NCBI GenBank assembly: GCA_003559095.1
Contig: PWMW01000057.1
Location: 6,538-70,537, forward strand
Direction: 5' to 3'
DNA: 64,000 nt
Source of the DNA: Clostridiales bacterium
GTDB lineage: Bacteria; Bacillota; Limnochordia; Darwinibacteriales; B1SED10-159
Numbering within the stretch: position 1 is the first letter of the stretch; each line of letters starts with the position of its first letter. Both the position numbers and the translations under genes were made by a program. Below are positions 2,438 through 60,951 of this stretch, in pieces. The notes beneath the pieces are model-generated. The model worked only from the letters and a program-made list of their open reading frames with translations. It was not told the DNA's origin and did no database searches.

Positions 2438-2989
2438 ATGTATTGGCAGGGAGCAGGCGCAGCCTTTACGCAGCAGACAGCCCGGGTGGCTGCCGACTAT
2501 TGGCAGACTCAGGAGCTGCCAGTGGTAGCAGCATCCAATACGGGAGACACAATCGAAGTATTATGTCAAGCCGGCATTCCAGCGGCAGCCATCGTCTGCG
2601 TGACCCACATGGTAGGCTTTCGAGAGCCAGGCCATGACGAAATGGCCGCGGAGACCAGAGATGCTCTAAAAGCCCAAGAGACCAAGGTTTTGACAACTAC
2701 GCATGCCTTGGCCGGCGTGGATCGAGCACTGCGCTTTCAGTTTCAAGGTATTTATCCTCCGGAGATTATTGCCCATTCCCTTCGTATGCTGGGGCAAGGC
2801 GTGAAGGTGTGCGTCGAGATTGGCATTATGGCCTTGGACGCGGGATTGATTCCTCACGGACAAAAGATCATTGCCATTGGGGGCAGCGGCCGCGGCGCCG
2901 ATACAGCGGTTGTCTTAACACCGGCCCATTCCAATGCCGTGTTTGAAACGATGATCCACGAAATTCTCTGCAAACCCGCTGATTGGTAG
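2438..2989 (+). CDS. Stand-alone pyruvate-kinase C-terminal (alpha/beta) domain-like protein
   Basis: Track ORF 2345..2989, trimmed to ATG 2438 behind AAGGAGG. VVAASNTGDT...IIAIGGSGRGADTAVVLTPAH resembles the PK_C-like family. Confidence 0.55.
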   Translation: MYWQGAGAAFTQQTARVAADYWQTQELPVVAASNTGDTIEVLCQAGIPAAAIVCVTHMVGFREPGHDEMAAETRDALKAQETKVLTTTHALAGVDRALRFQFQGIYPPEIIAHSLRMLGQGVKVCVEIGIMALDAGLIPHGQKIIAIGGSGRGADTAVVLTPAHSNAVFETMIHEILCKPADW

Positions 2990-3008
2990 TTGTCAACACG
3001 TTTCCAGA

Positions 3009-3128
3009 AACGTGTCGATAAAGAACCTTGGCGAGCTCATAACACGCGACGCGAAATCGCTGTAGTTGCGATTTCACTGAGGTGTCCGGTCTGTGGTTGA
3101 TCAGTATTCCGGGAAAGTCAACAAGCTT
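3009..3128 (+). repeat. Copy B of the ~119-nt element
   Basis: aacgtgtcgataaagaaccttggcgagctcataacacgcgacgcgaaatcgctgtagttgcgatttcactgaggtgtccggtctgtggttgatcagtattccgggaaagtcaacaagctt. It lies between convergent genes, and its 3' end overlaps the last codons and stop of mtnN. Confidence 0.85.
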
Positions 3129-3819
3129 CTAGCACGGCCTCAACGACCTGTGTCAGCCGGGGAATCACCGACTGAAGGAACGTTTCAAAGTTTTCCGGGG
3201 CACTGGCATCAGCCTTGTCGGAAATAACGCGAATAACGACGTACGGAATGGAGTTGAGGTGTGCAGTGTGAGCCACTGCTGCTCCTTCCATCTCAGCGCA
3301 CAGGGCCGCAAAGCTCTGACTGATTCGCTGTTTTGCCCCGGCGCCACTGATGAACTGATCGCCGCTGACAATCAATCCGGTGTGGACTTTGTCTGAACCA
3401 AAGATCTGCCGGGCAGCATTCTGAGTCAGCTGGACTAGATGCTGGTCTGCGGCAAAACGGCTAGTAGCCATGAAGGGTATCTCACCTACGGAAAATCCCA
3501 GTGCCGTGGTGTCAAAATCGTGATAGAGCGCGGCAGAGGAGATTGCGATGTCGCCAATATCTGCTATTGGGGCGATGGCGCCAGCCGCTCCAGAGTTGAT
3601 GATTCGTTCAGGCTTGTAGTGATCTGCCAAAATCTGAGTGCAAATGGCGGCATTGACTTTGCCAATGCCACAACGGACAAGAACGACCGCTTTTCCAGCC
3701 AGCGTCCCCTCGAAAAATGTCAGTCCTGCCTGACGATACTCCTTTTCGATCTGCATATGTTCCCGCAGCAGCACTACTTCCTCTTCCATGGCTCCTATGA
3801 CAGCAATTGGCCTTTCCAT
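3118..3819 (-). CDS. mtnN: 5'-methylthioadenosine/S-adenosylhomocysteine nucleosidase
   Basis: MERPIAVIGAMEEEV...GIGKVNAAICTQ...NSGAAGA...AEMEGAAVAH motifs. The track ORF extends to 3855, but the ATG at 3819 fits the family N-terminus. Confidence 0.85.
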   Translation of the reverse strand: MERPIAVIGAMEEEVVLLREHMQIEKEYRQAGLTFFEGTLAGKAVVLVRCGIGKVNAAICTQILADHYKPERIINSGAAGAIAPIADIGDIAISSAALYHDFDTTALGFSVGEIPFMATSRFAADQHLVQLTQNAARQIFGSDKVHTGLIVSGDQFISGAGAKQRISQSFAALCAEMEGAAVAHTAHLNSIPYVVIRVISDKADASAPENFETFLQSVIPRLTQVVEAVLEAC

Positions 3820-3904
3820 GGGGCACATCCTTTCCACCCAACGCCAATCCGGCATCTTCTGTGGTGTGTCTCAGCAACTATTGTACCACAAATAATGAAC
3901 GGAG

Positions 3905-5074
3905 TTGATGTCTGTGCGAATTCTTCATACATCAGATTGGCACCTGGGCAAAGCACTGGAAGGGCACAGTCGTCTGCCGGAACAGGAGCGGTTCTTAGAA
4001 GAGCTCGCTGCCATCGTCGAGGAGTGCGATGTGCATGGCGTCATCGTGGCCGGTGACGTCTATGACACGGTGAACCCGCCGGCTCGCGCCGAAGAGCTCT
4101 TCTACTGGGCCGTGGAGCGGTTGGCAGCCGGCGGTCGCAGGCCAGTGGTGGTTTTAGCAGGCAACCATGACAATCCAGAGCGTCTGACGGCTTCACAGCC
4201 CTTGGCGGAGTCTCAGGGAATCTTGCTGTTCGGTTTGCCCCAGGAGGCACCTCGTCCCCTGCGAATTCCCATTCCTATGGCAGACCATGATCTGTCCTTG
4301 GCTGTGCTGCCGTACCCATCGGAGCAGCGCCTCAATGTTCTGTTGAGTACGGTCATGGACGATGAACAACTACAGCAGGCCTACGCCGAAAAGGTAGCCG
4401 GCTTGTGGCGGCAGATGGACCAACAGTGGCATGATGGCTGTGTACGCATGGCCGCTTCGCACATCTACATGGCTGGTGGTGAGGAAACAGGCGTCGAACG
4501 TCCCATCCAGGTGGGAGGTGCCTATACCGTGCCAAGGACCGCCGTGCCTAATGGTGCCCAATACCTGGCCTTGGGGCATCTGCATCGTCCGCAGGACGTA
4601 CCCAACTGCCCTATCACCGCTCGTTACAGCGGATCGCCTTTATCCTATGGATTCGCCGAAGCACAGCAGACAAAATCGGTCACTATCGTCGATGCTGCAC
4701 CCACCAATCAGGTAGACGTGGAACACATCACTCTCACCAGCGGTAAGCCTTTGGTGCGCTGGCTGGCAGCCAATCCCGCCGAGCTCCGGGAATGGAGTAG
4801 CGCGCGGCGGGATCCCGATGCATGGGTGGATGTGGAAGTCAAGCTTACGGAAGCTCTGACACACAGTGAGCTCCAACAGATACGCCGCGCTCACCCGGGA
4901 ATTCTCCACATTCGACCCCTGTTTTCTGAGGTTCAAGCGCCAGACAGTCTATTAGCCTGGGACGAAATCAGCATGACGGATCATTTTGCCAGGTTCTATC
5001 TGCGGGAGAAGGGAGTCGAACCATCGCCAGAACTGCTGCGGTTGTTCGTGCAGTTAGTAGAAAGGTATGACTGA
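3905..5074 (+). CDS. sbcD: Exonuclease SbcCD, nuclease subunit D (Mre11-like)
   Basis: Calcineurin-type phosphoesterase motifs HTSDWHLG, AGDVYD, GNHD and GHLH in a 389-aa ORF. Confidence 0.85.
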   Translation: MMSVRILHTSDWHLGKALEGHSRLPEQERFLEELAAIVEECDVHGVIVAGDVYDTVNPPARAEELFYWAVERLAAGGRRPVVVLAGNHDNPERLTASQPLAESQGILLFGLPQEAPRPLRIPIPMADHDLSLAVLPYPSEQRLNVLLSTVMDDEQLQQAYAEKVAGLWRQMDQQWHDGCVRMAASHIYMAGGEETGVERPIQVGGAYTVPRTAVPNGAQYLALGHLHRPQDVPNCPITARYSGSPLSYGFAEAQQTKSVTIVDAAPTNQVDVEHITLTSGKPLVRWLAANPAELREWSSARRDPDAWVDVEVKLTEALTHSELQQIRRAHPGILHIRPLFSEVQAPDSLLAWDEISMTDHFARFYLREKGVEPSPELLRLFVQLVERYD

Positions 5075-5165
5075 AACAAGAATAATGGCATCATTTGGCA
5101 GGGTTTGGCGGGCCCGGTTGAGAATCAAGAGTAGATAAGGCCAACTCATACACTGTGAGGTAATC

Positions 5166-5915
5166 ATGACTGAAATGATTGACATATCGTTCCTTCTCAC
5201 CCAAGCCGTGAGTCTCACGTTCTTGTTTATTGTCCAGTTCAGCACGGGGCTCTTGGTTCTGCGCCATCGAGTCAAGGTGAACTACACTCGCAAGATAAAC
5301 CACTTTTTGCTGTTCGTTGTGCCGATCCTTCTGAACCGGGAATATGCGGTGGATCAGACAGTGGGTCTATTCGTTCTGGGCTCGTCATTGGCCGTTCTTA
5401 AGTTTGCTTTCTATGTAAAACCCATTCGCGATCGCGTGTTTGTAATACGTACCATGTTTTCGTCCTTTGATCGTCCAGAAGATCGCCCCAATACGCTGCT
5501 GTGGTTAGTGACGCAGACCGCTGCCGGGTATGCCGTCCTGCTGACTACTGGTTTGTTGTTATCTGAGTTCGGCCATATGGAGTTGATACTCATTCCATTG
5601 TTGATCTACGGGATTGGGGATGGTCTGGCCGAGCCCATCGGCGTTCGTTTTGGTCGTCACAAGTACAGCGTACCCAGTCTCTTCTCAAATAAGGACTATT
5701 ACCGAACGTTGGAGGGAAGCGCCTGCGTGTTCGTGACCTCAGTACTTGTGGTGGCTGCCCACTGCGGTCACTTTTCTCCGCTGCAGCTGGGCGTCGCCTT
5801 AGGGGTCGTTCCCGTGAGCATGACCTTGGCGGAAGCGCTCTCGCCGCATACCTGGGACTCCCCGTTGATGTTTCTCGTTGGTGGGCTGGCCATGTGGGGT
5901 ATTATGCTGCTTTGA
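5166..5915 (+). CDS. Polytopic membrane protein of the CTP-dependent polyprenol/phytol (dolichol) kinase-like family
   Basis: NYTRKINH and GIGDGLAEPIGVRFGRHKY...TLEGS motifs resemble the phytol/dolichol kinase and CdsA superfamily. Confidence 0.5.
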   Translation: MTEMIDISFLLTQAVSLTFLFIVQFSTGLLVLRHRVKVNYTRKINHFLLFVVPILLNREYAVDQTVGLFVLGSSLAVLKFAFYVKPIRDRVFVIRTMFSSFDRPEDRPNTLLWLVTQTAAGYAVLLTTGLLLSEFGHMELILIPLLIYGIGDGLAEPIGVRFGRHKYSVPSLFSNKDYYRTLEGSACVFVTSVLVVAAHCGHFSPLQLGVALGVVPVSMTLAEALSPHTWDSPLMFLVGGLAMWGIMLL

Positions 5916-6065
5916 ACGACGGTCAAACTTCAAGACCAGCGGTTCTGGGTGAGCGTAGGAATATCTGGGACCACCAACAGCGGTCGGAGCCCTTTCGAAG
6001 TCCTAACCCTGCCTGCAAAAGATTCGGCTGGCTGTTCTGTGCCTCTGTAAGGGAGGAATCATGGC

Positions 6066-7064
6066 ATGAGGAAAGCGTCATCTTTCACCTTATCTGTCTG
6101 GAAGCGAATCGCCATTGTGGCAGTGCTTTTGGTGCTGGCTGTTCTGACAACCATCGGTCCCCAGCCAGAAGAAGAAACGTCTGCCGCTGTTAGATTGGCA
6201 GCTGAGCACGATTTTAATGTACGCCCCGATGGACTGATGGCTCTGCAGGAGCTGTATGATTTCCAATTCGACACAGTATATGACATGGTCATCGGATTAA
6301 CCCACGAAGCACTGGGTGCATCGGACGTGGATGCGGCCTTGGGGTTTGCCACCGACGGCAAGATTAAACAGCTCGATCTGATTCGACTCCGTGACGATCG
6401 AGGGTTCTTTTCGGTGCACCATGCGGCCCCGGTAATCCGGGAAGAAGTGCTTGCAGCATACCCCGTCATCGCCGAGGCCGCAGGCTATGTCAGTGCTGCT
6501 TTGGACAACGATACCATGGTGCGGCTCAACTATCTCGTTGGTATCGAAGAACGGGAAAAATATGATGTGGCCAAGGAATGGCTTCAACAAGGGGAACTGC
6601 AGGCCGAATTGCAGGCACTTAAGCTTGACTCTGAAGGCGAAACATCCGTGCGTGTGGCGGCCAATCAGTTCACGGAGTACCAGATCCTGGGTAACATTCT
6701 GCTGATCATGCTGGAGACGTTGGGCATTCCCGTGGAGGACCACCTGCAGGCGCCACTGTTCACGCTGAGCAGAGACGGGGTCCTTGCGGGCGATTTGGAT
6801 ATCTATTGGGAATGCAGTGGTGCTGATTGGTATCATGTATATAGCGAAGAACACACTGAAGACCAACCCCGTGTAGATGGTTTGGAGGCTGTAAAGCAAG
6901 CCGCTGAGTACGATGCTGAACAGGGGCTTATCTGGTTGGAACCGGCACAGTTCGAGAACACGTTCGCGATCCTGATGCGCAAGGAACGCGCCGAGGAGTT
7001 AGGAATCGGCAGCATCAGCGATCTGGCCAACTGGGCCCGGGAATTGCAATCAGACACACGTTGA
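6066..7064 (+). CDS. Glycine-betaine/osmoprotectant-type (OpuAC family) substrate-binding protein, membrane-anchored, no cognate permease or ATPase nearby
   Basis: N-terminal hydrophobic anchor without a lipobox Cys. DDRGFFSVHHAAPVIREEVL and GFATDGKIKQLDL are typical of OpuAC-type SBPs. Confidence 0.55.
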   Translation: MRKASSFTLSVWKRIAIVAVLLVLAVLTTIGPQPEEETSAAVRLAAEHDFNVRPDGLMALQELYDFQFDTVYDMVIGLTHEALGASDVDAALGFATDGKIKQLDLIRLRDDRGFFSVHHAAPVIREEVLAAYPVIAEAAGYVSAALDNDTMVRLNYLVGIEEREKYDVAKEWLQQGELQAELQALKLDSEGETSVRVAANQFTEYQILGNILLIMLETLGIPVEDHLQAPLFTLSRDGVLAGDLDIYWECSGADWYHVYSEEHTEDQPRVDGLEAVKQAAEYDAEQGLIWLEPAQFENTFAILMRKERAEELGIGSISDLANWARELQSDTR

Positions 7065-7158
7065 CACCGTTTGGGTGCAATGCCCGATGTTCGTTGGAGC
7101 ATTTGCTGTGATGAAAGATGGGATACCCCTCGGATACTGTTTGGCAAAGGAGTCGACT

Positions 7159-8145
7159 ATGCAACTACAGCCATTGACTCGCAACTTCTTTTCCTCGTCA
7201 CCTCACAAAGAACGGCTCTGGCGGTGGGTTTGTCTTGGGATTACAGCAGTTCTAACGATTCTTCTGGTCCTTTTCTGGTATCCGCTGCGCAGCCCAGAAC
7301 TAACGTATCCCTATGTGGCCGTCGCCATTCGTCATGGCTATTTGACACCTTTGTTTCGCTTCATCACCATGCTGGGCAGCGAAGGGTTCTTTTTGGTGGC
7401 ATTGTCTGTGATCCATTGGTCGGTGCACAAAGGTTTGGGCTTTTGGGGCCTTATCCTGATGCCGTTGTCCATCTTGGTAACCAGTGAGATCCCGAAGGAT
7501 ATCACGCGTCTGCCGCGGCCGGATATTCGCGGGGTTGCTGTGCCGACGTATACCTTTCCCAGTGGGCATACATCCGGAGCCGTTAGTGTCTGGGGTTACG
7601 CTGCCATTGTTCTCAAAAACACGAAGTTTTGGATTTTGGCACTGGCGCTCATGCCCCTTGTAGGCCTGTCGCGCGTGGTTCTGGGATACCATTTTCCTGG
7701 GGATGTTGTCGGTGGCTTAGTGGCTGGTGTGCTATTCCTTGCCCTCTGCTTTTGGTTTGTTACAGTGCCGGGTCACAGTGAGTTGGTGCACGGCATTCCG
7801 TTTTGGCTGCAGGCAGTATTGGTCACTGGCATTCCGTTCGCAGCCTCTTTTCTGCCCGTAAAACTAGGTCCTGGGCTGTTGGGATACGTTGCCGGGGCAG
7901 CCCTAGGGCATCTATTCGAGCAGCGCTGTCTGGGCTTTCACACCGATGGTTCTAACCGTCAGCACGCGCTGCGGGGAGCATTAGGCTTGCCGCCGCTGGC
8001 CCTTTTTATTGTGGGATTGGCCTACATCGTTCCCGGCGCGTCCTGGTTGATCTTTCTCCGCTATGGATTGGCAACATTCTGGATCACCTATTGGGCTCCG
8101 CAGGTCTTTATCCGCTTGGGTTGGATGGAGCGGGTGGAGAGCTAG
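7159..8145 (+). CDS. PAP2-family membrane phosphatase (lipid phosphate / undecaprenyl-PP phosphatase-like)
   Basis: Canonical PAP2 motifs KDITRLPRP, PSGH and SRVVLGYHFPGDV. Start set to ATG 7159 behind AAGGAG. Confidence 0.8.
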   Translation: MQLQPLTRNFFSSSPHKERLWRWVCLGITAVLTILLVLFWYPLRSPELTYPYVAVAIRHGYLTPLFRFITMLGSEGFFLVALSVIHWSVHKGLGFWGLILMPLSILVTSEIPKDITRLPRPDIRGVAVPTYTFPSGHTSGAVSVWGYAAIVLKNTKFWILALALMPLVGLSRVVLGYHFPGDVVGGLVAGVLFLALCFWFVTVPGHSELVHGIPFWLQAVLVTGIPFAASFLPVKLGPGLLGYVAGAALGHLFEQRCLGFHTDGSNRQHALRGALGLPPLALFIVGLAYIVPGASWLIFLRYGLATFWITYWAPQVFIRLGWMERVES

Positions 8146-11998: not shown

Positions 11999-13348
11999 AT
12001 GAAGCCCATCAGTTTTGATTATCGTCGAGCTCAAGACTTCATCAAGGAACATGAACTGGAATATTTGCAGCAGGATGTCCTCACGGCGCACAGCAAAGTC
12101 CACACTGGCACTGGTGCAGGTTCAGACTTTCTCGGGTGGGTCGATCTGCCCGTAAATTACGATAAAGAGGAATTTCAACGAATTGAACGAGCTGCGGCCA
12201 AGATACGTAAGGACAGCGACGTTCTGGTCGTTATTGGTATCGGCGGTTCGTATTTGGGGGCTAGGGCAGCCATCGAAACCTTGACCGATACGTTCTATGC
12301 TCAAAAAGGCCGTGAAGAACGGCAGGGACCGCAGATCATCTTTCTCGGACACCACATCAGCGGGACCTACACGGCGGATCTTCTGGACCACCTTGATGGG
12401 AAAGACGTCAGCGTTAATGTCATATCCAAATCTGGGACCACCACCGAACCCGCCATCGCCTTTCGTATATTGCGCCGCTGGATGGAAGAAAAATATGGGG
12501 TGGAGGCCAAGGACCGGATTTTTGTCACCACGGACGCTCAGCGAGGCGCCCTTAAGACGCTGGCCGATGAACAGGCCTATGAGACGTTCGTCATTCCTGA
12601 CGATGTGGGAGGCCGTTATTCGGTACTGACCGCCGTGGGACTGCTGCCTATCGCTGCGGCTGGTATTGCCATCAAGGAGATGATGGAAGGGGCCCAAGCC
12701 GCCAGGGAGTGGTACAGCAGCGATCGCTTAGCGGACAACGCAGCCTACCAATACGCTGTGGTGCGAAATCTTCTGTACCGTAAGGGCAAGTCCGTGGAGA
12801 TATTGGTGAACCATGAACCGCAGTTGCACTATTTTGCTGAATGGTGGAAGCAGCTGTTTGGCGAAAGTGAGGGTAAGGATAACAAGGGTCTTTATCCGGC
12901 GGCTGTTGACTTTTCGACCGATCTGCACTCTATGGGTCAGTTCATTCAAGAGGGCGCCCGTGTTCTTTTTGAGACGGTGCTTCAAGTGGAAGCGCCGCGG
13001 CGAGACGTGGTTATTGAACCCGATGAACAGAATTTGGATGGGTTGAATTTCATCGCCGAACGAACTATGGACTTTGTCAATAAACAGGCTTTTGCAGGGA
13101 CCGTGTTGGCCCACACTGATGGCGGTGTGCCCAACTTGGTTGTTACTGTTCCTCGTCTGGATCCTTTTTACTTTGGCGCCTTGGTGTATTTCTTCGAACT
13201 GGCCTGCGCCATCAGTGGTTATCTCTTAGGTGTCAATCCCTTTGATCAACCCGGTGTCGAGGCTTACAAGAAGAACATGTTTGCTCTGTTGGGTAAGCCG
13301 GGTTTTGAGGAACTGCGCGAACAACTGGAAAAGCGTTTACAGAAGTAG
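11999..13348 (+). CDS. pgi: Glucose-6-phosphate isomerase (Firmicutes-type, ~450 aa)
   Basis: [32 protein letters not shown] and [14 protein letters not shown] motifs. Confidence 0.9.
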
Positions 13349-13359
13349 GAGGTGCCGCT

Positions 13360-14307
13360 GTGCAGTTGTATCCAATGACCTTTGAACCGGTGTACCACGA
13401 GAAGCTTTGGGGAGGGCGAAGGTTGGAAACGCTGTTTCAACGAAAACTGCCTTCCGGTCGCATTGGCGAAAGTTGGGATGTGGCGGCCCATCCCAACGGT
13501 ATGAGCATCGTGAACAGGGGATCACTTCAGGGTAGCACCTTAGCACAGGTGGCTGCCGAATATCCCGATGAACTGTACGGAACGAGTGCACTGGTCCCTG
13601 AGCGCTTCCCGCTCTTGGTCAAGATCATCGACGCCCAACAGGCATTATCAGTGCAGGTGCATCCTGACGATGCCTACGGTCGGGAGCATGAGCAGGGAGA
13701 GTACGGCAAGACCGAGGCCTGGTATGTTCTGCATGCTGAACCGGGCGCGACCGTGGTCTATGGACTGCATCCTGATGTTACCAAGGAGTCCTTTCGCCGC
13801 CTCGTGGAATCTGGCCGCACAGAAGAGGGTCTGCGTGAAATTCCGGTGCAGGCCGGCGACATTCTGCACATCCCTGCGGGACTAGTCCACGCTCTCGGCG
13901 CTGGTGTTGTGGTGGCTGAAGTGCAGCAGAACTCGGATACGGTGTATCGGGTCTTTGATTGGAACAGGGTGGATGACTCCGGTCAACCCCGAGAACTCCA
14001 TGTGGACAAAGCCTTTGACGTTATTAACTTCACCATGCAGCCGCAGCCCCTTAAGAGCCTGCGCAACCCGGTGGTGGCCAATGAGCATTTCATTATGGAG
14101 ATCTACGACAACTTGGATGCAGCCACCGTCTCCGATGCGGATCGGTTCCACATTCTGATGTGTTTGTCAGGGAAAACCCATGTTGCTTGGCAGGACCATG
14201 ACCTGACGCTGCAGGCTGGTGACTCCTGTTTGGTGCCTGCTGCGTGTCAAGGATACGCTGTGCATTCCTATGGAAAGCTGCTGCGGGCGTACCAACCAAC
14301 GCCTTAA
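13360..14307 (+). CDS. manA: Class I mannose-6-phosphate isomerase
   Basis: KLWGG, ESWDV, LSVQVHPDD and GKTEAWYVL motifs. GTG start behind AGGAGG. Confidence 0.8.
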   Translation: MQLYPMTFEPVYHEKLWGGRRLETLFQRKLPSGRIGESWDVAAHPNGMSIVNRGSLQGSTLAQVAAEYPDELYGTSALVPERFPLLVKIIDAQQALSVQVHPDDAYGREHEQGEYGKTEAWYVLHAEPGATVVYGLHPDVTKESFRRLVESGRTEEGLREIPVQAGDILHIPAGLVHALGAGVVVAEVQQNSDTVYRVFDWNRVDDSGQPRELHVDKAFDVINFTMQPQPLKSLRNPVVANEHFIMEIYDNLDAATVSDADRFHILMCLSGKTHVAWQDHDLTLQAGDSCLVPAACQGYAVHSYGKLLRAYQPTP

Positions 14308-14477
14308 GGCAGCTGCCCCACGACGAAGAGAGTGTTTGGGCGCGTGGCAGTTGCCACCAGCGAACGGGTACACGTATATACCCATACAGGGTTCGGGTAA
14401 ATTTGCCCATGCCACTGGACTGTGAAAGATAACCATGTTATACTATCGCTAGGAACGAAGCACGGGAGGTGAATACT

Positions 14478-14774
14478 GTGTTGAATGTAACACCGAAGGC
14501 GCAAGAAAAGTTAGCAGCATACCTCCAACAGGAACAGGCCGAGGAAACAATGATTCGCCTTTTTATACGGGGTATGGGCTGAGGCGGGCCGAGTTTCGGC
14601 ATGTCTCTGGAAGAGACCAAGGAAGAGCATGATGCAATTGTGGAGACCAGTGGGTTTTCCTTTTTATTGGATCCTAGGGCCCAGGTCTATTTGGAGAACG
14701 GAACCATCGATTACCGGAAATCTATTTTTGGCGAAGGTTTTTCCATTACGTCTGCCATGGGAGGCAGTTGTTAA
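14478..14774 (+). CDS. HesB/IscA-like protein with in-frame TGA (14580..14582) at the active-site position; probable HesB-like selenoprotein
   Basis: Absent from the ORF track because the TGA splits it. Manual translation gives MLNVTPKAQEKLAAYLQQEQAEETMIRLFIRGMG-U-GGPSFGMSLEETKEEHDAIVETSGFSFLLDPRAQVYLENGTIDYRKSIFGEGFSITSAMGGSC. GGGAGG lies 8 nt upstream of the GTG, and there is a strong hairpin after the TAA. Confidence 0.65.
14603..14617 (+). promoter_or_regulatory. Candidate bacterial SECIS hairpin (GTCTCT-GGA-AGAGAC)
   Basis: A 6-bp stem with a G-first apical loop about 29 nt downstream of the UGA, within the usual bacterial SECIS spacing. A second small hairpin GCCGA-GUU-UCGGC lies at 14588..14600. 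Confidence 0.3.
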
Positions 14775-14790: not shown

Positions 14791-14821
14791 GAAAGGACTC
14801 TTCCTGTGGAAGAGTCCTTTC
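14791..14821 (+). terminator. 14-bp perfect hairpin GAAAGGACTCTTCC-TGT-GGAAGAGTCCTTTC
   Basis: Lies directly after the HesB-like gene. The U-tail is short (it lies within the stem end). Confidence 0.55.
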
Positions 14822-14865: not shown

Positions 14866-15312
14866 ATGATGCTACAGTCTTGGATCGATCAATTGAAACG
14901 AAATGGGCATAAAGTGACAGCGCCGCGGCGAAAGCTTCTGCAGTACTTGGATGGGCGGGACGCACCGTTTACGGCCGAGGAGATCTATGGTGAACTGTCT
15001 GCAACGGGTGTTGGCCGCGCCACGGTATTTCGCACGTTGAAGCTTCTCCAGGATGTAGGCGTATTGGTTCGGGTTCACCTAGAACACGGGTGTCAGCATT
15101 ACCAAGCTGCGCCTGGGATACCCGGTGATACACACCACCATGATCGCATCATCTGTCGGGAATGCGGGGACATCGCGCTTTTGGACCAATGTCCCATGCG
15201 TTCCGATGTTTCCGACATTGCTCGCCGTTCAGGATTTCGTATCCAAGGTCATCATCTGGACCTATACGGTATCTGCAGCAGTTGCGAGGAACTGCCAACA
15301 AAGGATGACTAG
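14866..15312 (+). CDS. Fur-family metalloregulator, probably Zur by context
   Basis: Winged-helix segment TAPRRKLLQYL...RATVFRTLKLL, HHHD, and two CxxC pairs (CRECG, CSSC). It lies upstream of a zinc-type ABC importer. Confidence 0.75.
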   Translation: MMLQSWIDQLKRNGHKVTAPRRKLLQYLDGRDAPFTAEEIYGELSATGVGRATVFRTLKLLQDVGVLVRVHLEHGCQHYQAAPGIPGDTHHHDRIICRECGDIALLDQCPMRSDVSDIARRSGFRIQGHHLDLYGICSSCEELPTKDD

Positions 15313-15759: not shown

Positions 15760-17139
15760 ATGAAGCGTAACGTATTTGGAAGTTTGGTTTTGGTGCTGGT
15801 GCTTATCTTGGCGACGGCCATTGCTGGTGCACATTCAGATCACAGTGATGATGATCATGACCATCATCATGACCATCACGGACATCATCACACCCACGAC
15901 GATGTCTCTCACCGCTTGTTTGTTGTTTCCGAAACAGGAACACAGATGATCTTTTTGGATATCTTGGATCACCAGATCGTTGACCACGGACTCGTTGACT
16001 TCGGAGCAGCAACAACAGATGTGCTTGTGTCTGAAAACGGGCGTTATTTGGCGTTCTTGGTGCCCGACACCGATCAGGTTCAAGTATGGTCTAGTGGTCT
16101 GTTTTTGGAGGAGCACGGGGACCACTACGATGTAGTAGCTGTGCGCCCCGCATTATTTTGGGAACACCGTGTCGGTCGCGATTCGCAGCGGCTGCGCAGT
16201 CATGGTCCGGACTTCCTCATAGGCAACACGGACGATGGAACCGTGTCCCTGCTGCAAAGTGAAGACGGTATTCAGCTGGTGCTTCCTGGTGGAGGAGGTC
16301 CGGCTGATTTCGATGAGAACTCCGTCGCTCTGACCGATCCTCAGCTGGGTCTGCTTGACATCTTTACACGCCACCCATTGACGAAGCGAGCCACACTGCG
16401 CCTGCCTGCAGAACCACAGCAGGTGATCGTCAGCGGGAACCATGCATTCGTAAGCCTGCGCGATGGCTGGTATAAGCTGGATCTCACAGATCTTTCCGGC
16501 CACGTGCACGGAGAACTTTGGCAGGCAGCGCCAGCTGTAGTTTGGAGCCACCCGGATTCAGGTTGGATCTATGCACTGGTTGATAATGCAATCCATGGCT
16601 TTGACACGCACGCAGGGGCGGTCGAACTGTATCCTCTGGACCATTCTGGGGTACTGTCTGTGGACCAGGACAGCCACTATGCTGTGGCCATAGGAGACAG
16701 TGGTCTTGACCTTCACCTTGTGGACGTGGGTCACGGCGGCATCCACAGTGCAGACAGCACCGGGCTCGTGTTTGAACAGCCGATTTTGGCCGTGGCTTGG
16801 GCTGGTAGAGATATCGCGGCGGTAACCGATGATGGAGTACTTTGGTTGGTATCTCGCGACGGTCGAGTCCGTGATCGCTTCGAACTTCCATTCGTTGGTG
16901 ATAAAGTAGTGACAGCCTTCATCCCCGATCACGAGAAGCACCTGCACCCTCACGACCATGACCATCATCATGACCATGACCATCATCACGATCATGACCA
17001 TCATCACGATCATGACGAGCACCACCACGATCATGACGAGCACCACCACGATCATGACGGACATCATCACGATCATGACGAGCACCACCACGATGGCGAG
17101 CATGACGACGAACACCACGACCACAATCACAGCCATTAA
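15760..17139 (+). CDS. Secreted His/Asp-rich protein with predicted beta-propeller core; candidate AztD-like periplasmic zinc metallochaperone
   Basis: Signal peptide MKRNVFGSLVLVLVLILATAIAGA. N-terminal HSDHSDDDHDHHHDHHGHHHTHDD and a ~65-aa C-terminal H/D/E tail. The middle has repeated strand-turn segments. It lies directly upstream of the ZnuA-like SBP. Confidence 0.5.
   Translation: MKRNVFGSLVLVLVLILATAIAGAHSDHSDDDHDHHHDHHGHHHTHDDVSHRLFVVSETGTQMIFLDILDHQIVDHGLVDFGAATTDVLVSENGRYLAFLVPDTDQVQVWSSGLFLEEHGDHYDVVAVRPALFWEHRVGRDSQRLRSHGPDFLIGNTDDGTVSLLQSEDGIQLVLPGGGGPADFDENSVALTDPQLGLLDIFTRHPLTKRATLRLPAEPQQVIVSGNHAFVSLRDGWYKLDLTDLSGHVHGELWQAAPAVVWSHPDSGWIYALVDNAIHGFDTHAGAVELYPLDHSGVLSVDQDSHYAVAIGDSGLDLHLVDVGHGGIHSADSTGLVFEQPILAVAWAGRDIAAVTDDGVLWLVSRDGRVRDRFELPFVGDKVVTAFIPDHEKHLHPHDHDHHHDHDHHHDHDHHHDHDEHHHDHDEHHHDHDGHHHDHDEHHHDGEHDDEHHDHNHSH
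16945..17136 (+). repeat. Imperfect in-frame tandem repeat of CAY/GAY codons (unit about 21 nt, HHHDHDE)
   Basis: gagcaccaccacgatcatgac recurs three times with variants. It encodes the C-terminal His/Asp tail. Confidence 0.8.
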
Positions 17140-17224: not shown

Positions 17225-18136
17225 ATGTTCTTTAGCAAAGAAGGACGCATTGTCGTTTTGGGTTTGGTGGCGGCACTTTTGATAACCCTCTTGGTTCCGG
17301 CAGCTGCCACTGCCGCATCACTACGGGTGGTGGCGACGTTCTCTGTGATCGCTGACATGGCGGAGCAGGTGGGTGGCACCAAGGCTGAGGTCAGTTCCAT
17401 TGTTCCATTGGGCGGTGATCCCCACACCTGGGAACCCACACCTCGGGAAGCCCGCCATTTGGCCACGGCCGACGTTCTGCTCTATAATGGCTTGGGTCTC
17501 GAGCTGTGGGTGGACCGTCTTATTCGCAGTGCCGCCCGGCCGGACCTGCCGGTGATCGTGCTGTCTGAAGGCCTTGAGCCGATACCCGGCGCCTCGTTTG
17601 CCGCACATGTGCATGAAGAAGGCGATCCTCACTTCTGGTTGAATGTGCAGTACGGTATGCATTACGTGGAAAGGATTTTGGCTGCTTTCGTCCAGTTGGA
17701 TCCGGACAACGCGGCATATTATACTGCCAATGCCGAAAGGTATCTGCAGACATTGGCAGAATTAGATCAATGGATAGAGCAGGCTGTCCTGCAGATTCCT
17801 GAAGAGCGGCGCAAATTGGTCACGTATCATGATGCCTTCGGCTACTTGGCCCAACGCTATGGCTTTGAAATCAGCGGGTTCTTGGTTGTGAACCCGGATC
17901 GTGAACCAAGTTCCAGAGAAATGGCTAACATTGTGCGACAACTGGCTTCGCAGGAACGCCCGGTGATCTTTGTGGAACCACAGGTTAGCTCTGGTCACCG
18001 CTACGCCGAGGCTGTGGCCAGCGAGGTGGGCGGCAGCGTGGGACTTTTGTACAGTGACAGTCTCACCGAGGAGGTGCCGACGTACGTAGACATGATGCGT
18101 TGGAATGTGAATCAGTTATTGGAGGCTCTGCAATGA
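17225..18136 (+). CDS. Metal (Zn/Mn) ABC transporter substrate-binding protein, ZnuA/TroA cluster A-I
   Basis: LRVVATFSVIADM...GGDPHTWEPTP...HEEGDPHFW motifs. Confidence 0.85.
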   Translation: MFFSKEGRIVVLGLVAALLITLLVPAAATAASLRVVATFSVIADMAEQVGGTKAEVSSIVPLGGDPHTWEPTPREARHLATADVLLYNGLGLELWVDRLIRSAARPDLPVIVLSEGLEPIPGASFAAHVHEEGDPHFWLNVQYGMHYVERILAAFVQLDPDNAAYYTANAERYLQTLAELDQWIEQAVLQIPEERRKLVTYHDAFGYLAQRYGFEISGFLVVNPDREPSSREMANIVRQLASQERPVIFVEPQVSSGHRYAEAVASEVGGSVGLLYSDSLTEEVPTYVDMMRWNVNQLLEALQ

Positions 18137-18900
18137 GTGGGCAAACCGCAGGTTTGGCCGTCGAGGTCAAAGGCTTGACCGCGGCCTATGAACGTAAAGA
18201 AGTACTATCTGGTGTGAACTGGCAGGTGCCAAAGGGACACTTGGCCGCCATCATCGGGCCTAATGGCGGGGGTAAGTCTACGCTGCTCAAATCGTTGGTG
18301 GGCATGGTGCAGCCGCGAGTTGGTGAGGTGCGGCTCTTTGGTCGGCGGCCGAAGGATGCCAGGGGCGAGGTGGCGTATCTGCCGCAGTCAGAAGAGGTCG
18401 ACTGGAGCTTCCCGATCAGCGTCCTGCAGGTGGTCCTGCAGGGACGCACTGCCCATCACAGATGGTGGCAGCGCAATCATCTCCAGGATAGGGAAAAGGC
18501 CATGGAGTCATTGGGCAAAGTTAGAATGGCGGATTACGCGCACCGGCCTATCGGAGCCCTTTCGGGAGGGCAGAAGCAGCGAGTATTCATTGCACGGGCT
18601 CTAGCTCAGGACGCGGATTTGGTTATCATGGATGAACCCGGGACCGGTTTGGATTCCACGGCACAGCACGAACTGTTGGATCTTTTCGTGGAGATGAAAG
18701 CGGCCGGCCATACGGTTGTTATTACCACCCACGATCTCAACTGTTTGGCAGAGCACTTCGACTTGGTCTTGGGTCTTAACGGGATCGTCATGGTTGCAGG
18801 ACCACCGCGGGAAGTCTTGACAGGGGAAATCATCACGTCGCTATTTTCACGTCACTTTCCGGTTATCACACCTGAAGGGGGAGTGGCTATGCATGATTGA
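18133..18900 (+). CDS. Metal ABC transporter ATP-binding protein (ZnuC-like)
   Basis: GPNGGGKST, LSGGQKQR and LVIMDEPGTGLD motifs. The ATGA overlaps the SBP stop. Confidence 0.85.
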   Translation: MSGQTAGLAVEVKGLTAAYERKEVLSGVNWQVPKGHLAAIIGPNGGGKSTLLKSLVGMVQPRVGEVRLFGRRPKDARGEVAYLPQSEEVDWSFPISVLQVVLQGRTAHHRWWQRNHLQDREKAMESLGKVRMADYAHRPIGALSGGQKQRVFIARALAQDADLVIMDEPGTGLDSTAQHELLDLFVEMKAAGHTVVITTHDLNCLAEHFDLVLGLNGIVMVAGPPREVLTGEIITSLFSRHFPVITPEGGVAMHD

Positions 18901-19747
18901 TTTTTTCTTGGAGCCCTTTCAGTTCTCCTTTATGACGCGAGCGTTGGCTGGCACAGCGATGATTGCCCTTCTATCTGCCATGATTGGAACGTTCGTGGTG
19001 CTGAAAGGGTTGGCATTCATTGGGGATGCCATCGCCCATACCAGTTTTAGCGGGCTAGCCCTGGCACTGCTTGTGGGGATGAATCTTTATGTTGGTGCCT
19101 TGATCTTTGCTCTGCTGACTGCTTTTGGAGTTACGTTTCTTCAGCGCACGGCCAAAATGCGCAGTGACACGGCCTTGGCTATCATGTTCACTGGCGCGTT
19201 TTCCTTCGGGATCATTTTGCTGGCGGCCATGCCCAACTTTGCCGGGGACTTGACTGCTTTGTTACTGGGTTCGGTTCTGGGTATCCGCATGCAGGAGCTC
19301 TATTGGATCGCGGGCGCTGTTTTGGTGACAGCCGCCATCTTGGCCTTGGTATGGGACCATTTGGTCTACGTTTCCTTTGATCCTGTGGGCGCGGAGGCTG
19401 CGGGACTACCTGTAACAAAGATCCAATTACTGCTGCTCTCATTGATCGCCGGTGCCATTGTGGTATCGATTCAGGCTGTAGGTATGATTCTAGTGGTGGC
19501 ACTGCTCATAACCCCAGCGGCTACGGCGTCCATTTTTACCCGGCGTTTGGTGCCCATGATGATCGTGGCGGCGGGCTTTGGTTTGCTGGCCGTGTTCGTG
19601 GGTTTGCTGCTGTCCTACTATTTGTCAGCCCCACCTGGCGCCACGATTGTTCTTGTAGCCACTCTTGAGTTCGGCATTGCTCTGGCTGTGTCTGCTGGTG
19701 TGCGGCGTCTTTTGTGGCGAACGGCAATGGAGGTGAGGGAGACATGA
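18893..19747 (+). CDS. Metal ABC transporter permease (ZnuB-like)
   Basis: 284-aa polytopic ABC-3 family pattern, overlapping both neighbouring genes. Confidence 0.8.
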   Translation: MIDFFLEPFQFSFMTRALAGTAMIALLSAMIGTFVVLKGLAFIGDAIAHTSFSGLALALLVGMNLYVGALIFALLTAFGVTFLQRTAKMRSDTALAIMFTGAFSFGIILLAAMPNFAGDLTALLLGSVLGIRMQELYWIAGAVLVTAAILALVWDHLVYVSFDPVGAEAAGLPVTKIQLLLLSLIAGAIVVSIQAVGMILVVALLITPAATASIFTRRLVPMMIVAAGFGLLAVFVGLLLSYYLSAPPGATIVLVATLEFGIALAVSAGVRRLLWRTAMEVRET

Positions 19748-59054: not shown

Positions 59055-60428
59055 TTACATGAGATGTCCCAGCAGAATGGAGGCTATGGTGAAGTAGATG
59101 AATAATCCACTGAGGTCTTTGATGGTCGTAATAATGGGGTCGGCACCCGCGGCCTGGTCCAATCCCATCTTCGTCAAGGTGTAGGGGACCACAAACCCAA
59201 CCACGGTGGCCAATGTAACGGTGAAGAAGAGCGACATGGTTACGACCAGACCCAACTCCAGCATGCCCTGCCAAAACCAAGCGAAAAGGCCGCCGCTGAC
59301 ACCAAGTAAGACGCCAATGGACATACCCACCCGGGTTTCGCGCCACAGCTGTGTCAAAAACTGGTCCATGTTGATATGACCCAAGATCAATCCGCGGGTG
59401 AAGATCGTGGAAGACTGAGTGCCGACGTTACCGCCCATATCCATAATGACGGGGATAAAGAAAGCAAGAATGACAACAGTTTCCAGGGCTTCTTCGAAGA
59501 CGCCAATCAGTCCGCCGGCGGCCAAACCGCCGACCAAGGTAATGATCAGGTAAGGAAGCCGGGCCCGCAGGACCACGGGAATGGCTCCTTTGACCAAGTC
59601 GTAGCTGCGAGTGGACTCACGGCTTTGAATGTCTCCCAAACCGGCCTTGGCGTAGATGTCCTCAGTGGCTTCTTCCTGGAGGATATCCATGGCGTCGTCC
59701 ACTGTGATAATCCCGACCAACCGGTTTTCTTTGTCCACAACGGGCAGGGCCAACAGATCATGTTCTTGGATCTTGAGGGCGGCCACTTCCTGGTCTTCGT
59801 CGGTCTGACTGCTGACAATATCCACTTCCATCAGATCGCCGATGACGGCATCATCTTCGGCCAAAACCAAATCCTTGAGGGATACAACACCCCGCAGGTT
59901 CCGGGTATTATCGGTGACGTAGCAGTAATAAATTGTCTCGCGTTCTGGGCTGACCCGGCGGATCTTGGCCAAAGCTTCCCGCACGGTCATGTTCTCCCGC
60001 AGCGAAACGTATTCCGGGGTCATAATACGCCCGGCAGTGTCTGGTTTGTAGCCCATCAGCAATCCCACGGCCTGCCGGTCTTCCGAGGACAGCCGGCTCA
60101 GGAGGCGCTTGGCCACTTTGGCTGGCAGCTCGTCTAGAAGTTCCACTTGGTCGTCGGGATCCAGGCTGCTGATGAGTTCCAGGGCTCTTTCCTCTTGGAA
60201 GCTGCTGAGCAGTGTTTGCTTCTCTTCGACGTTGAGCTGTTCGAAAACTTCCATGGCCAGATCCTTGGGTAGGAGTCGAAAGACAGGCCCCTGCTCAGCT
60301 AGGGGCAGCACCCGGATCAGTTGGGCTACATAAACATGGTTCTCGTCTCGGAGAGCTCGTTTAACAGCTTCGAGGTTCTTCTGTTCCAGATCTTCACGGA
60401 TTTGTGCATACAGTTTTTCAAAGCTCAT
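59055..60428 (-). CDS. mgtE: Magnesium transporter MgtE
   Basis: N-domain, tandem CBS domains and the C-terminal PVIMDMGGNVGTQSST motif. Confidence 0.9.
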   Translation of the reverse strand: MSFEKLYAQIREDLEQKNLEAVKRALRDENHVYVAQLIRVLPLAEQGPVFRLLPKDLAMEVFEQLNVEEKQTLLSSFQEERALELISSLDPDDQVELLDELPAKVAKRLLSRLSSEDRQAVGLLMGYKPDTAGRIMTPEYVSLRENMTVREALAKIRRVSPERETIYYCYVTDNTRNLRGVVSLKDLVLAEDDAVIGDLMEVDIVSSQTDEDQEVAALKIQEHDLLALPVVDKENRLVGIITVDDAMDILQEEATEDIYAKAGLGDIQSRESTRSYDLVKGAIPVVLRARLPYLIITLVGGLAAGGLIGVFEEALETVVILAFFIPVIMDMGGNVGTQSSTIFTRGLILGHINMDQFLTQLWRETRVGMSIGVLLGVSGGLFAWFWQGMLELGLVVTMSLFFTVTLATVVGFVVPYTLTKMGLDQAAGADPIITTIKDLSGLFIYFTIASILLGHLM

Positions 60429-60733: not shown

Positions 60734-60940
60734 ATGAACCCCTTCTCAACAGGAGAAGGGGTTCATTGTAACACAACAAAGAACGCCTCCCTTGTTGAGC
60801 TTTAGCACTATAGGGTTAGAGTTTAGCTCGGCTACATTAGATCATACCTTAATCCGATAAGACCTGTTCACCCATTGGCGTCTCTCGACATTTTTGGGCA
60901 GCAGCTCATCCCCTATAGGAGCCTCACCTAACGAAGAGGT
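60734..60940 (-). promoter_or_regulatory. M-box (ykoK) Mg2+ riboswitch with intrinsic terminator
   Basis: The minus strand reads CUUCGUUAGGUGAGGCUCCUAUAGGGGAUGAGCUGCUGCCCAAAAAUGUCGAGAGACGCCAAUGGGUGAACAG...AAGGUAUGAUCUAAUGUAGCCGAGCUAAACUCUAACCCUAUAGUGCUAAAGCUCAAC, nearly collinear with the B. subtilis mgtE M-box. It is followed by the hairpin AUGAACCCCUUCUC-loop-GAGAAGGGGUUCAU + UUUAU (60734..60766). Confidence 0.9.
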
Positions 60941-60951
60941 TATCCATACAT

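Follow-up and report, generated by a model that had tools for sequence, protein, structure and literature searches.

The 64,000-nucleotide stretch of DNA analysed here (hereafter the window; contig PWMW01000057.1 of assembly GCA_003559095.1, from a Clostridiales bacterium placed in the Limnochordia of the phylum Bacillota) carries, at positions 14478-14774 of the forward strand, one intact gene for a 98-residue protein of the HesB/IscA fold. The in-frame UGA codon of this gene (14580-14582) is very probably decoded as selenocysteine (Sec, U) at residue 35, within the motif GUGGP. A probable selenoprotein had been proposed at this position from the sequence itself (hereafter the original prediction), and the conservation of the UGA codon in 21 genes, a homolog with cysteine at the same position, purifying selection, the use of the standard genetic code, the geometry of a predicted selenocysteine insertion sequence (SECIS) and the UxGP motif all support this proposal. 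The protein is a new branch of the known HesB-like selenoprotein family that is not captured by the existing Sec-specific family models, and not a new kind of selenoprotein.

Conservation of the UGA codon and of the reading frame

Translation of 14478-14774 gives VLNVTPKAQEKLAAYLQQEQAEETMIRLFIRGMG, a stop, and then GGPSFGMSLEE and onwards to GFSITSAMGGSC before the terminal stop codon, with the TGA at 14580-14582 as the sole internal stop. As the original prediction held, this TGA splits a frame of 98 codons, and a mechanical listing of open reading frames (ORFs) breaks it into two parts, 14469-14582 (37 aa) and 14601-14774 (57 aa). In the homologs of loci L013 and L005, an ATG start stands opposite the GTG start at 14478.

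Homologs were obtained in two ways, by searching proteins and by scanning the representative genomes of GTDB. No more than five hits came from the first protein search, three of which (P0001, P0003 and P0005) are 57-aa fragments, while P0002 (loci L005-L007) and P0004 (L008) show 'W' at the TGA, with no re-translation under table 11. Locus L001 additionally carries a spurious 48-aa gene call ending at the TGA. The expectation that standard annotation would miss the gene is thus borne out by the database entries, which are either 57-aa fragments or code-4 'W' read-throughs. At the DNA level, these hits represent four independent lineages (58-87% identity), each with the TGA at the identical codon and with both flanks conserved. 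In the GTDB scan, two Bacillota metagenome-assembled genomes (MAGs) were found, one of the Limnochordia in soda-lake sediment (L012, identical to L001) and one of Natronincola (L013, with the TGA). The scan also gave 16 MAGs of Syntrophales/Deltaproteobacteria, where the codon is TGA in 15 and TGT in one (L022).

The resulting set of 21 Sec genes, on which the comparisons below are based, comprises the window gene, five further Bacillota lineages (L012/L001, L003, L005, L008 and L013) and the 15 Syntrophales/Deltaproteobacteria genes. The TGA stands in the same alignment column in 21/21 genes across two phyla, and the remaining homolog, L022, has a TGT (Cys) in that column, so that the family contains a pair of Sec- and Cys-coding homologs. 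The window protein is 55-87% identical to the five other members of the Bacillota clade. Downstream of the TGA, the proportion of nonsynonymous differences (pN, 0.09-0.27) is far below that of synonymous differences (pS, 0.61-0.92) in comparisons with five relatives by the Nei-Gojobori method, corresponding to pN/pS values of 0.12-0.33, and we therefore conclude that the downstream segment is translated. Upstream of the TGA, pN is also far below pS in the same five comparisons, with values like those found downstream. Besides, a strain variant from a lake-water metagenome (X3, identical to L009) has kept the TGA; in its ORF, three changes relative to the window are synonymous and a fourth, T24S, is conservative.

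The most obvious alternative is a fossil gene, in which Sec decoding was once present, the trait has been lost, and the TGA now truncates the product after 34 residues. Losses of selenoproteins have been documented for the HesB-like family (PMC1794560), and the Sec machinery was not found in the window, both of which would fit such a fossil. It is nevertheless very improbable, because the TGA, the frame and the downstream sequence are kept in the five further Bacillota lineages, the downstream segment shows the low pN/pS given above, the codons forming the predicted SECIS lack synonymous change, and the strain variant carries synonymous or conservative changes only; a dead gene would keep none of these features over such divergence. 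The original prediction had itself considered a truncated pseudogene lacking conservation past the TGA, and what is found in the relatives is a downstream segment that is conserved and under purifying selection.

A conserved hairpin with SECIS geometry

Two small hairpins had been described just downstream of the UGA codon, and both fold at the positions originally given for them (H1 at 14588-14600 and H2 at 14603-14617; Table 1). According to the published model of the bacterial SECIS (bSECIS), the element has an apical loop of 3-9 nt on an upper stem of 4-16 bp, a G in the first or second position of the loop that is usually followed by G or U, a distance of 16-37 nt between the UGA and the loop, and a minimum free energy (MFE) of -7.5 kcal/mol or lower (PMC13188914, Fig. 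2A). In loop, stem, position of the G and spacing, H2 agrees with this model in 21/21 genes. In the window, a stem of 6 bp carries the loop GGA; most relatives have UGGAU on 5-6 bp, and (U)GGA(W) describes the loop in all 21 Sec genes. The spacing between UGA and loop is 25-26 nt throughout; in the window it is 26 nt and the loop begins with G, so that the SECIS-compatible spacing and the G-first loop claimed for this second hairpin hold within the published geometry. H2 thus resembles the bSECIS model in its loop of 3-5 nt, in the G at position 1 or 2 followed by another G, and in its stem of 5-7 bp, whereas it differs in being a short hairpin that follows a second small hairpin, instead of one long bulged stem.

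The consensus structure calculated with RNAalifold contains H2 with 5 bp and the loop UGGAW, including, at one of the pairs, a U-G/U-A alternation that stems from Ala/Thr codons. When the named consensus structure is laid over the 21 sequences, 97% of the cells are paired, compared to 25-49% with slid partners, and for H2 the value is 100%. H1 and H2 together reach -13.1 kcal/mol in the window, and the region with H2 enforced reaches -8.0 to -14.7 kcal/mol across the 21 genes. H2 is part of the unconstrained MFE fold in 15 of them.

That this element is constrained at the RNA level can be seen from codon variation when the 21 Sec genes are put into a codon-threaded alignment. A single run of degenerate codons, numbers 43-46, lacks synonymous variation, and it is this run that forms H2: Ser-43 is TCT, Leu-44 is CTG and Glu-46 is GAG in 21/21 genes, and residue 45 is encoded by GAT in all genes with Asp (17/17) and by GAA in the four genes with Glu. 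Elsewhere, each column of Ser, Leu, Gly or Pro shows 2-5 different codons, in most cases 3-5. The sole synonymous change in the core occurs in the Cys homolog L022, where CTG is replaced by CTA and the first G of the loop becomes A. The loss of this G in a gene that codes for Cys and has no need of a SECIS is suggestive, as a single case. The core AUGUCUCUGGAWGAG is nearly invariant across Bacillota and Syntrophales, and it may represent a family-specific SelB recognition module that has spread with the gene by horizontal transfer.

H1 does not have the spacing of a bSECIS, as its loop lies 10 nt from the UGA, which is too close. A core of 3 bp is found family-wide in the RNAalifold consensus, and the innermost pair covaries (CG in 10 genes, UG in 4, GC in 3, GU in 1 and broken in 3). 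H1 probably has an accessory role or reflects a CCN...GGN coding constraint. An extended helix, in which GAGGCG from the UGA onwards pairs with UGUCUC and which gives the MFE fold in the window, was also considered as the SECIS and rejected, as it lies outside the consensus and is impossible in the UGA-UCN genes of Syntrophales.

Relationship to the HesB-like selenoproteins and to A-type carriers

The HesB-like proteins are an established selenoprotein family of bacteria and archaea, for which 11 members had been reported by 2006 by Zhang, Romero, Salinas and Gladyshev, from Syntrophus, Syntrophobacter, Desulfovibrio, Geobacter, Desulfuromonas, Alkaliphilus, Desulfitobacterium, Clostridium, Bacillus sp. 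and Symbiobacterium (PMC1794560). The existence of such a family in Firmicutes and Deltaproteobacteria, mentioned in the original prediction, is documented by these published members. The family is listed with the motif UxGP and the model TIGR01911 in a 2026 review (PMC13188914), and the member from Methanococcus maripaludis has been labelled with 75Se, its function being described as unclear (PMC11097638).

We aligned the 11 published sequences, taken from the supplement of the 2006 study, with the sequences found in this analysis. The window protein is 25-37% identical to the published members, the U columns coincide, and it shares GUxGP and the downstream L-[DE]-E with them; among the homologs, Cys takes the place of U in L022. 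In a rough neighbour-joining (NJ) tree, the window protein falls in a clade with L012, L003, L005, L008 and the Natronincola sequence L013, and this clade adjoins the member from Alkaliphilus metalliredigens. The window protein thus shares with the family the HesB/IscA fold over approximately 95-105 aa, Sec at the first conserved Cys in G-U-x-G-P, the L-[DE]-E motif 9-11 residues after Sec, a SECIS-like hairpin just downstream, an occurrence in Clostridia-type Firmicutes and Deltaproteobacteria, and the existence of Cys-containing homologs. It differs in that its clade is made up of soda- and salt-lake MAGs, Limnochordia-like ones and Natronincola, and in its C-terminus, which has one Cys, and none in L008, whereas the tails of the deltaproteobacterial members are rich in Cys.

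For scoring against hidden Markov models (HMMs), residue 35 was entered as C and also as X. The protein with C matches Pfam PF01521 with 50.9 bits (cut-off 26.3) over residues 2-92; the match runs continuously across the TGA, and neither half corresponds to a complete domain. The generic A-type carrier model TIGR00049 gives 65.9 bits with C and 58.8 bits with X, the latter being equal to its cut-off of 58.8. The solved structures 2APN and 1NWB align over residues 3-92, and the structures of Escherichia coli IscA (1S98 and 1R94) align more weakly. In the alignment with 2APN and 1NWB, residue 35 corresponds to the first ligand Cys, and the UGA is thus placed where the original prediction had located it. 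Its description of a textbook HesB/IscA fold holds with respect to the matches to PF01521 and TIGR00049 and fails with respect to the C-terminus, where the Cys-Gly-Cys is missing and one terminal Cys is left.

Compared to IscA, SufA and ErpA, the window protein is alike in passing TIGR00049 and in having residue 35 on the first ligand Cys. It is different in having Sec as ligand 1, in the reduction of Cys-Gly-Cys to one terminal Cys, and in its genomic position between PGI-PMI and a Fur/ZnuABC block, without an isc, suf or nif neighbourhood. Canonical A-type Fe-S carriers have three ligand cysteines in the arrangement C-X(n)-C-G-C. This arrangement is not present in the window protein, whose candidate ligands are U35 and the terminal C98 only; L008 has no C-terminal Cys at all.

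Weighing selenocysteine insertion against other readings

Recoding of the UGA as an amino acid other than Sec (Trp, Cys or Gly), by hairpin-stimulated read-through or by an alternative code, would agree with the 'W' shown in the public gene calls P0002 and P0004, and the conserved downstream hairpin could in principle stimulate read-through. Of the 52 other genes mapped in the window, however, 16 end in TGA, and the window therefore uses the standard code; an alternative genetic code is ruled out by this stop-codon usage, and the 'W' records are evidently artefacts of code-4 gene calling on short contigs. Moreover, the recoded position is that of the ligand Cys of the fold, the sole homolog without TGA has Cys, the protein aligns with an experimentally supported selenoprotein family with the same UxGP motif, and the hairpin matches the geometry of a SECIS. 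Considering these points, we give recoding without Sec hardly any weight.

Two separate small products, namely a 34-residue peptide ending at the TGA and an independent 57-residue protein starting at the ATG at 14601, are extremely unlikely: this ATG occurs in all homologs, 57-aa ORFs are held in the databases and a GAGG lies 16 nt upstream of it, but each half covers only part of the PF01521 domain, the HMM match passing through the TGA uninterrupted, the N-terminal 34 codons are conserved in frame under purifying selection, the ATG encodes the conserved Met of the G-M-S-L peptide and ends with the base (14603) that opens the SECIS stem, and a GAGG spacing of 16 nt would be poor for a Shine-Dalgarno sequence.

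Several observations weigh against Sec insertion. Neither of the two Sec-specific models of NCBIfam reaches its cut-off: TIGR01911 (HesB_rel_seleno, cut-off 66.35) gives 51.1 bits with C and 49.0 bits with X, and NF038090 (IscA_HesB_Se, cut-off 85) gives 63.4 bits with C and 57.1 bits with X. The assignment to TIGR01911 that accompanied the original prediction is thus not upheld, and the protein belongs to a separate clade. The four other members of the Bacillota clade that were scored also fall below both cut-offs; on the other hand, the Syntrophales relative L019 passes NF038090 with 115.1 bits. The window protein has the same fold, Sec position and overall length as the proteins behind these two models, and since both cut-offs are missed, model-driven annotation would not flag it as a selenoprotein. 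The failure of the clade on these models agrees with the fragments and code-4 'W' records seen in the databases.

With respect to the RNA, H2 alone has a free energy of -6.1 kcal/mol in the window, above the threshold of -7.5 kcal/mol of the bSECIS model, and of -6.1 to -7.9 kcal/mol in the relatives, so that the energy is borderline. The unconstrained MFE fold of the window (-17.1 kcal/mol) contains a competing helix into which part of H2 is drawn. With so little variation in H2, no compensatory changes can be expected there, and the structure rests on sequence invariance and not on covariation, and the conserved S-L-[DE]-E peptide could be partly behind this invariance. No SECIS or other family of Rfam was found on the region even at E <= 10, the hits at this level being hairpin artefacts on the terminator only. 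The transcript evidence described below comes from assembled contigs that possibly contain DNA, and is weak.

With respect to the genome, no selA, selB, selD or tRNA-Sec was found in the 64-kb window, a result that says little at that size. This search used ARAGORN for the tRNA and NCBIfam or Pfam on about 40 ORFs; ARAGORN detected no tRNA in the window, and in the 28 retrieved loci only a tRNA-Arg. A second selenoprotein was not evident in the 64 kb either, where TGA-interrupted intergenic frames gave only noise.

Sec insertion would proceed by the route established for bacteria. With the ribosome arriving at the UGA, SelB, loaded with GTP and Sec-tRNA(Sec), would bind the hairpin at 14603-14617 of the mRNA, whose G-rich apical loop is positioned 25-26 nt past the UGA, and would deliver Sec in competition with release factor 2. 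Judging from the fold, the selenol would take the place of the thiol that serves as the first cluster or metal ligand in A-type carriers.

Gene structure and flanking signals

The gene has its own promoter-like site, ribosome-binding site and strong terminator hairpin (Table 1), and because of these it looks monocistronic. The GGGAGG ribosome-binding site and the strong downstream hairpin noted at the outset were both located. The latter lies between the HesB gene and a Fur-family gene and has a free energy of -23.4 kcal/mol (z = -5.34), with 0/200 shuffled sequences being as stable. A metatranscriptome contig (X10) is 100% identical over 14445-14609, across the start codon and the TGA, and its 5' end lies directly after the -10 box of the promoter-like site.

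Table 1. Features of the HesB-like gene and its surroundings in the window (positions in the 64,000-nt stretch).
Feature	Position	Strand	Remarks
Promoter-like site TGGACT-17 nt-TATACT	14416-14444	+	TG-extended -10 box; consensus scan match only
Shine-Dalgarno sequence GGGAGG	14464-14469	+	Read from the sequence; 8 nt before GTG 14478
Coding sequence of the predicted HesB-like selenoprotein	14478-14774	+	98 codons plus TAA; GTG start
Predicted selenocysteine codon, in-frame UGA	14580-14582	+	Residue 35, motif G-U-G-G-P
Hairpin H1, GCCGA-GUU-UCGGC	14588-14600	+	Overlaps Pro-Ser-Phe-Gly codons; -7.0 kcal/mol
Hairpin H2, GUCUCU-GGA-AGAGAC	14603-14617	+	Predicted SECIS apical stem-loop; -6.1 kcal/mol
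Terminator-like hairpin	14791-14821	+	14-bp stem, 3-nt loop, UC-rich tail
Fur-family regulator gene	14866-15312	+	
His-rich secreted protein gene	15760-17139	+	459 aa
ZnuA/ABC/ABC-3 transporter genes	17225-19747		After the His-rich protein gene

Two further elements were observed upstream of the gene. An inverted repeat, GATAACcatGTTATA (14428-14442), lies on the -10 box and resembles an operator of the Fur family; it is identical in L012 and absent in L003, and it is not enriched in the window, with 4 hits at up to 2 mismatches compared to 1.67 expected. The idea of a Fur box was rejected, as the repeat is common only to the nearest relative and lacks enrichment in the window. The other is a palindromic element, TACCC-N11-GGGTA followed by an A/T run (14379-14399), which precedes the HesB start by approximately 80-100 nt. 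The homologs in L012 and L003 have it on their upstream side as well, and because it is kept in L012 although the upstream gene differs there, it travels with the HesB gene; it may be an operator or a small hairpin.

Genomic neighbourhood and habitat

In the window, the gene order is PGI, PMI, HesB(Sec), a Fur-family regulator, a 459-aa secreted protein, ZnuA, an ABC ATPase and an ABC-3 permease. The order of Fur, His-rich protein and Znu genes 3' of HesB is kept in L001/L012 and not in the Natronincola locus L013, where the Fur/Znu block is absent and the genes run PGI-PMI-HesB(Sec)-DUF1540-pseudouridine synthase. PGI, type I PMI and HesB(Sec) follow one another in this order both in the window (11999-14774) and in L013 (3644-6294), and a pseudouridine synthase is found further downstream in both. 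The HesB start in L013 lies 37 nt after PMI, and co-transcription is possible there. In L001/L012, a 325-aa protein with a double ferritin domain and a Linocin_M18 encapsulin (279 aa) are encoded between PMI and HesB(Sec) (2510-4323); this pair of ferritin-like cargo and encapsulin is absent from the window.

The N-terminus of the 459-aa protein resembles a signal peptide, the sequence contains a His/Asp-rich stretch HSDHSDDDHDHHHDHHGHHH and its C-terminus is drawn out into a long HDHDHHH... tail; no match to the protein was found in Pfam or NCBIfam. Its counterpart in L001, at the same position, has 432 aa. The protein has the appearance of a periplasmic chaperone for a metal (zinc?) within an uptake operon of the Zur type.

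In six Syntrophales loci (L019, L020, L024-L026 and L028), HesB(Sec) is part of a recurring block at approximately 4400-7900 of each locus, whose contents were checked by Pfam in L019, L024 and L025. On the 5' side of HesB there is a class-V aminotransferase (cysteine desulfurase-like) or a 4Fe-4S ferredoxin, and on the 3' side CutA1 (L019 and L025) and/or an ArsP_1 permease of ~420 aa with a C-terminal HMA domain (L019 and L024). The handling of metals or Fe-S recurs as a theme in these neighbourhoods. They do not settle what the protein does, because the window gene is set apart by a promoter-like site and a terminator of its own, and none of the neighbours is conserved across the clades.

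The window DNA is present in metagenomes from salt lakes, soda lakes and alkali sediments, and its nearest named relative is a Limnochordia MAG. Elsewhere in the window, an M-box (magnesium) riboswitch (60780-60942, reverse strand, 133 bits) stands directly upstream of an MgtE gene (59055-60428, reverse strand), an arrangement that is ordinary and well known.

Possible function of the protein

A canonical three-Cys cluster site is unlikely in the window protein, because the CGC is reduced to one Cys, and to none in L008. A dimeric carrier of Fe, Fe-S or another metal, or a redox carrier, centred on Sec is more plausible, though this is speculation. We also considered, as a rather improbable proposal, that the haloalkaliphilic Bacillota clade is functionally distinct, its members carrying metal or acting in redox reactions through the selenol, in connection with metal homeostasis, and not serving as a three-ligand Fe-S scaffold. 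In the proteins of this clade, Sec is the only invariant ligand and there is at most one C-terminal Cys, none in L008, from which such a distinct role may be read. This proposal fits the Fur/Zn-type ABC genes of the window, the encapsulin and ferritin-like cargo of L012, and the CutA1 and HMA permease of Syntrophales.

Implications

These results correct an annotation and leave the current understanding of selenoproteins unchanged, without new biology. All public records of the clade found here are wrong, being 57-aa C-terminal fragments, a 48-aa N-terminal fragment or 'W' read-throughs, and the addition of the clade sequences to NF038090 or TIGR01911, or a third model, would mend the annotation of Limnochordia-like bacteria and Natronincola. 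Besides, the invariant SECIS core, together with a natural Cys form in which the G of the loop is mutated, offers a testable hypothesis on the recognition of the SECIS by SelB. Overall, the gene implies Sec decoding in Bacillota of soda lakes and salt lakes, and widens the known range of this selenoprotein family.

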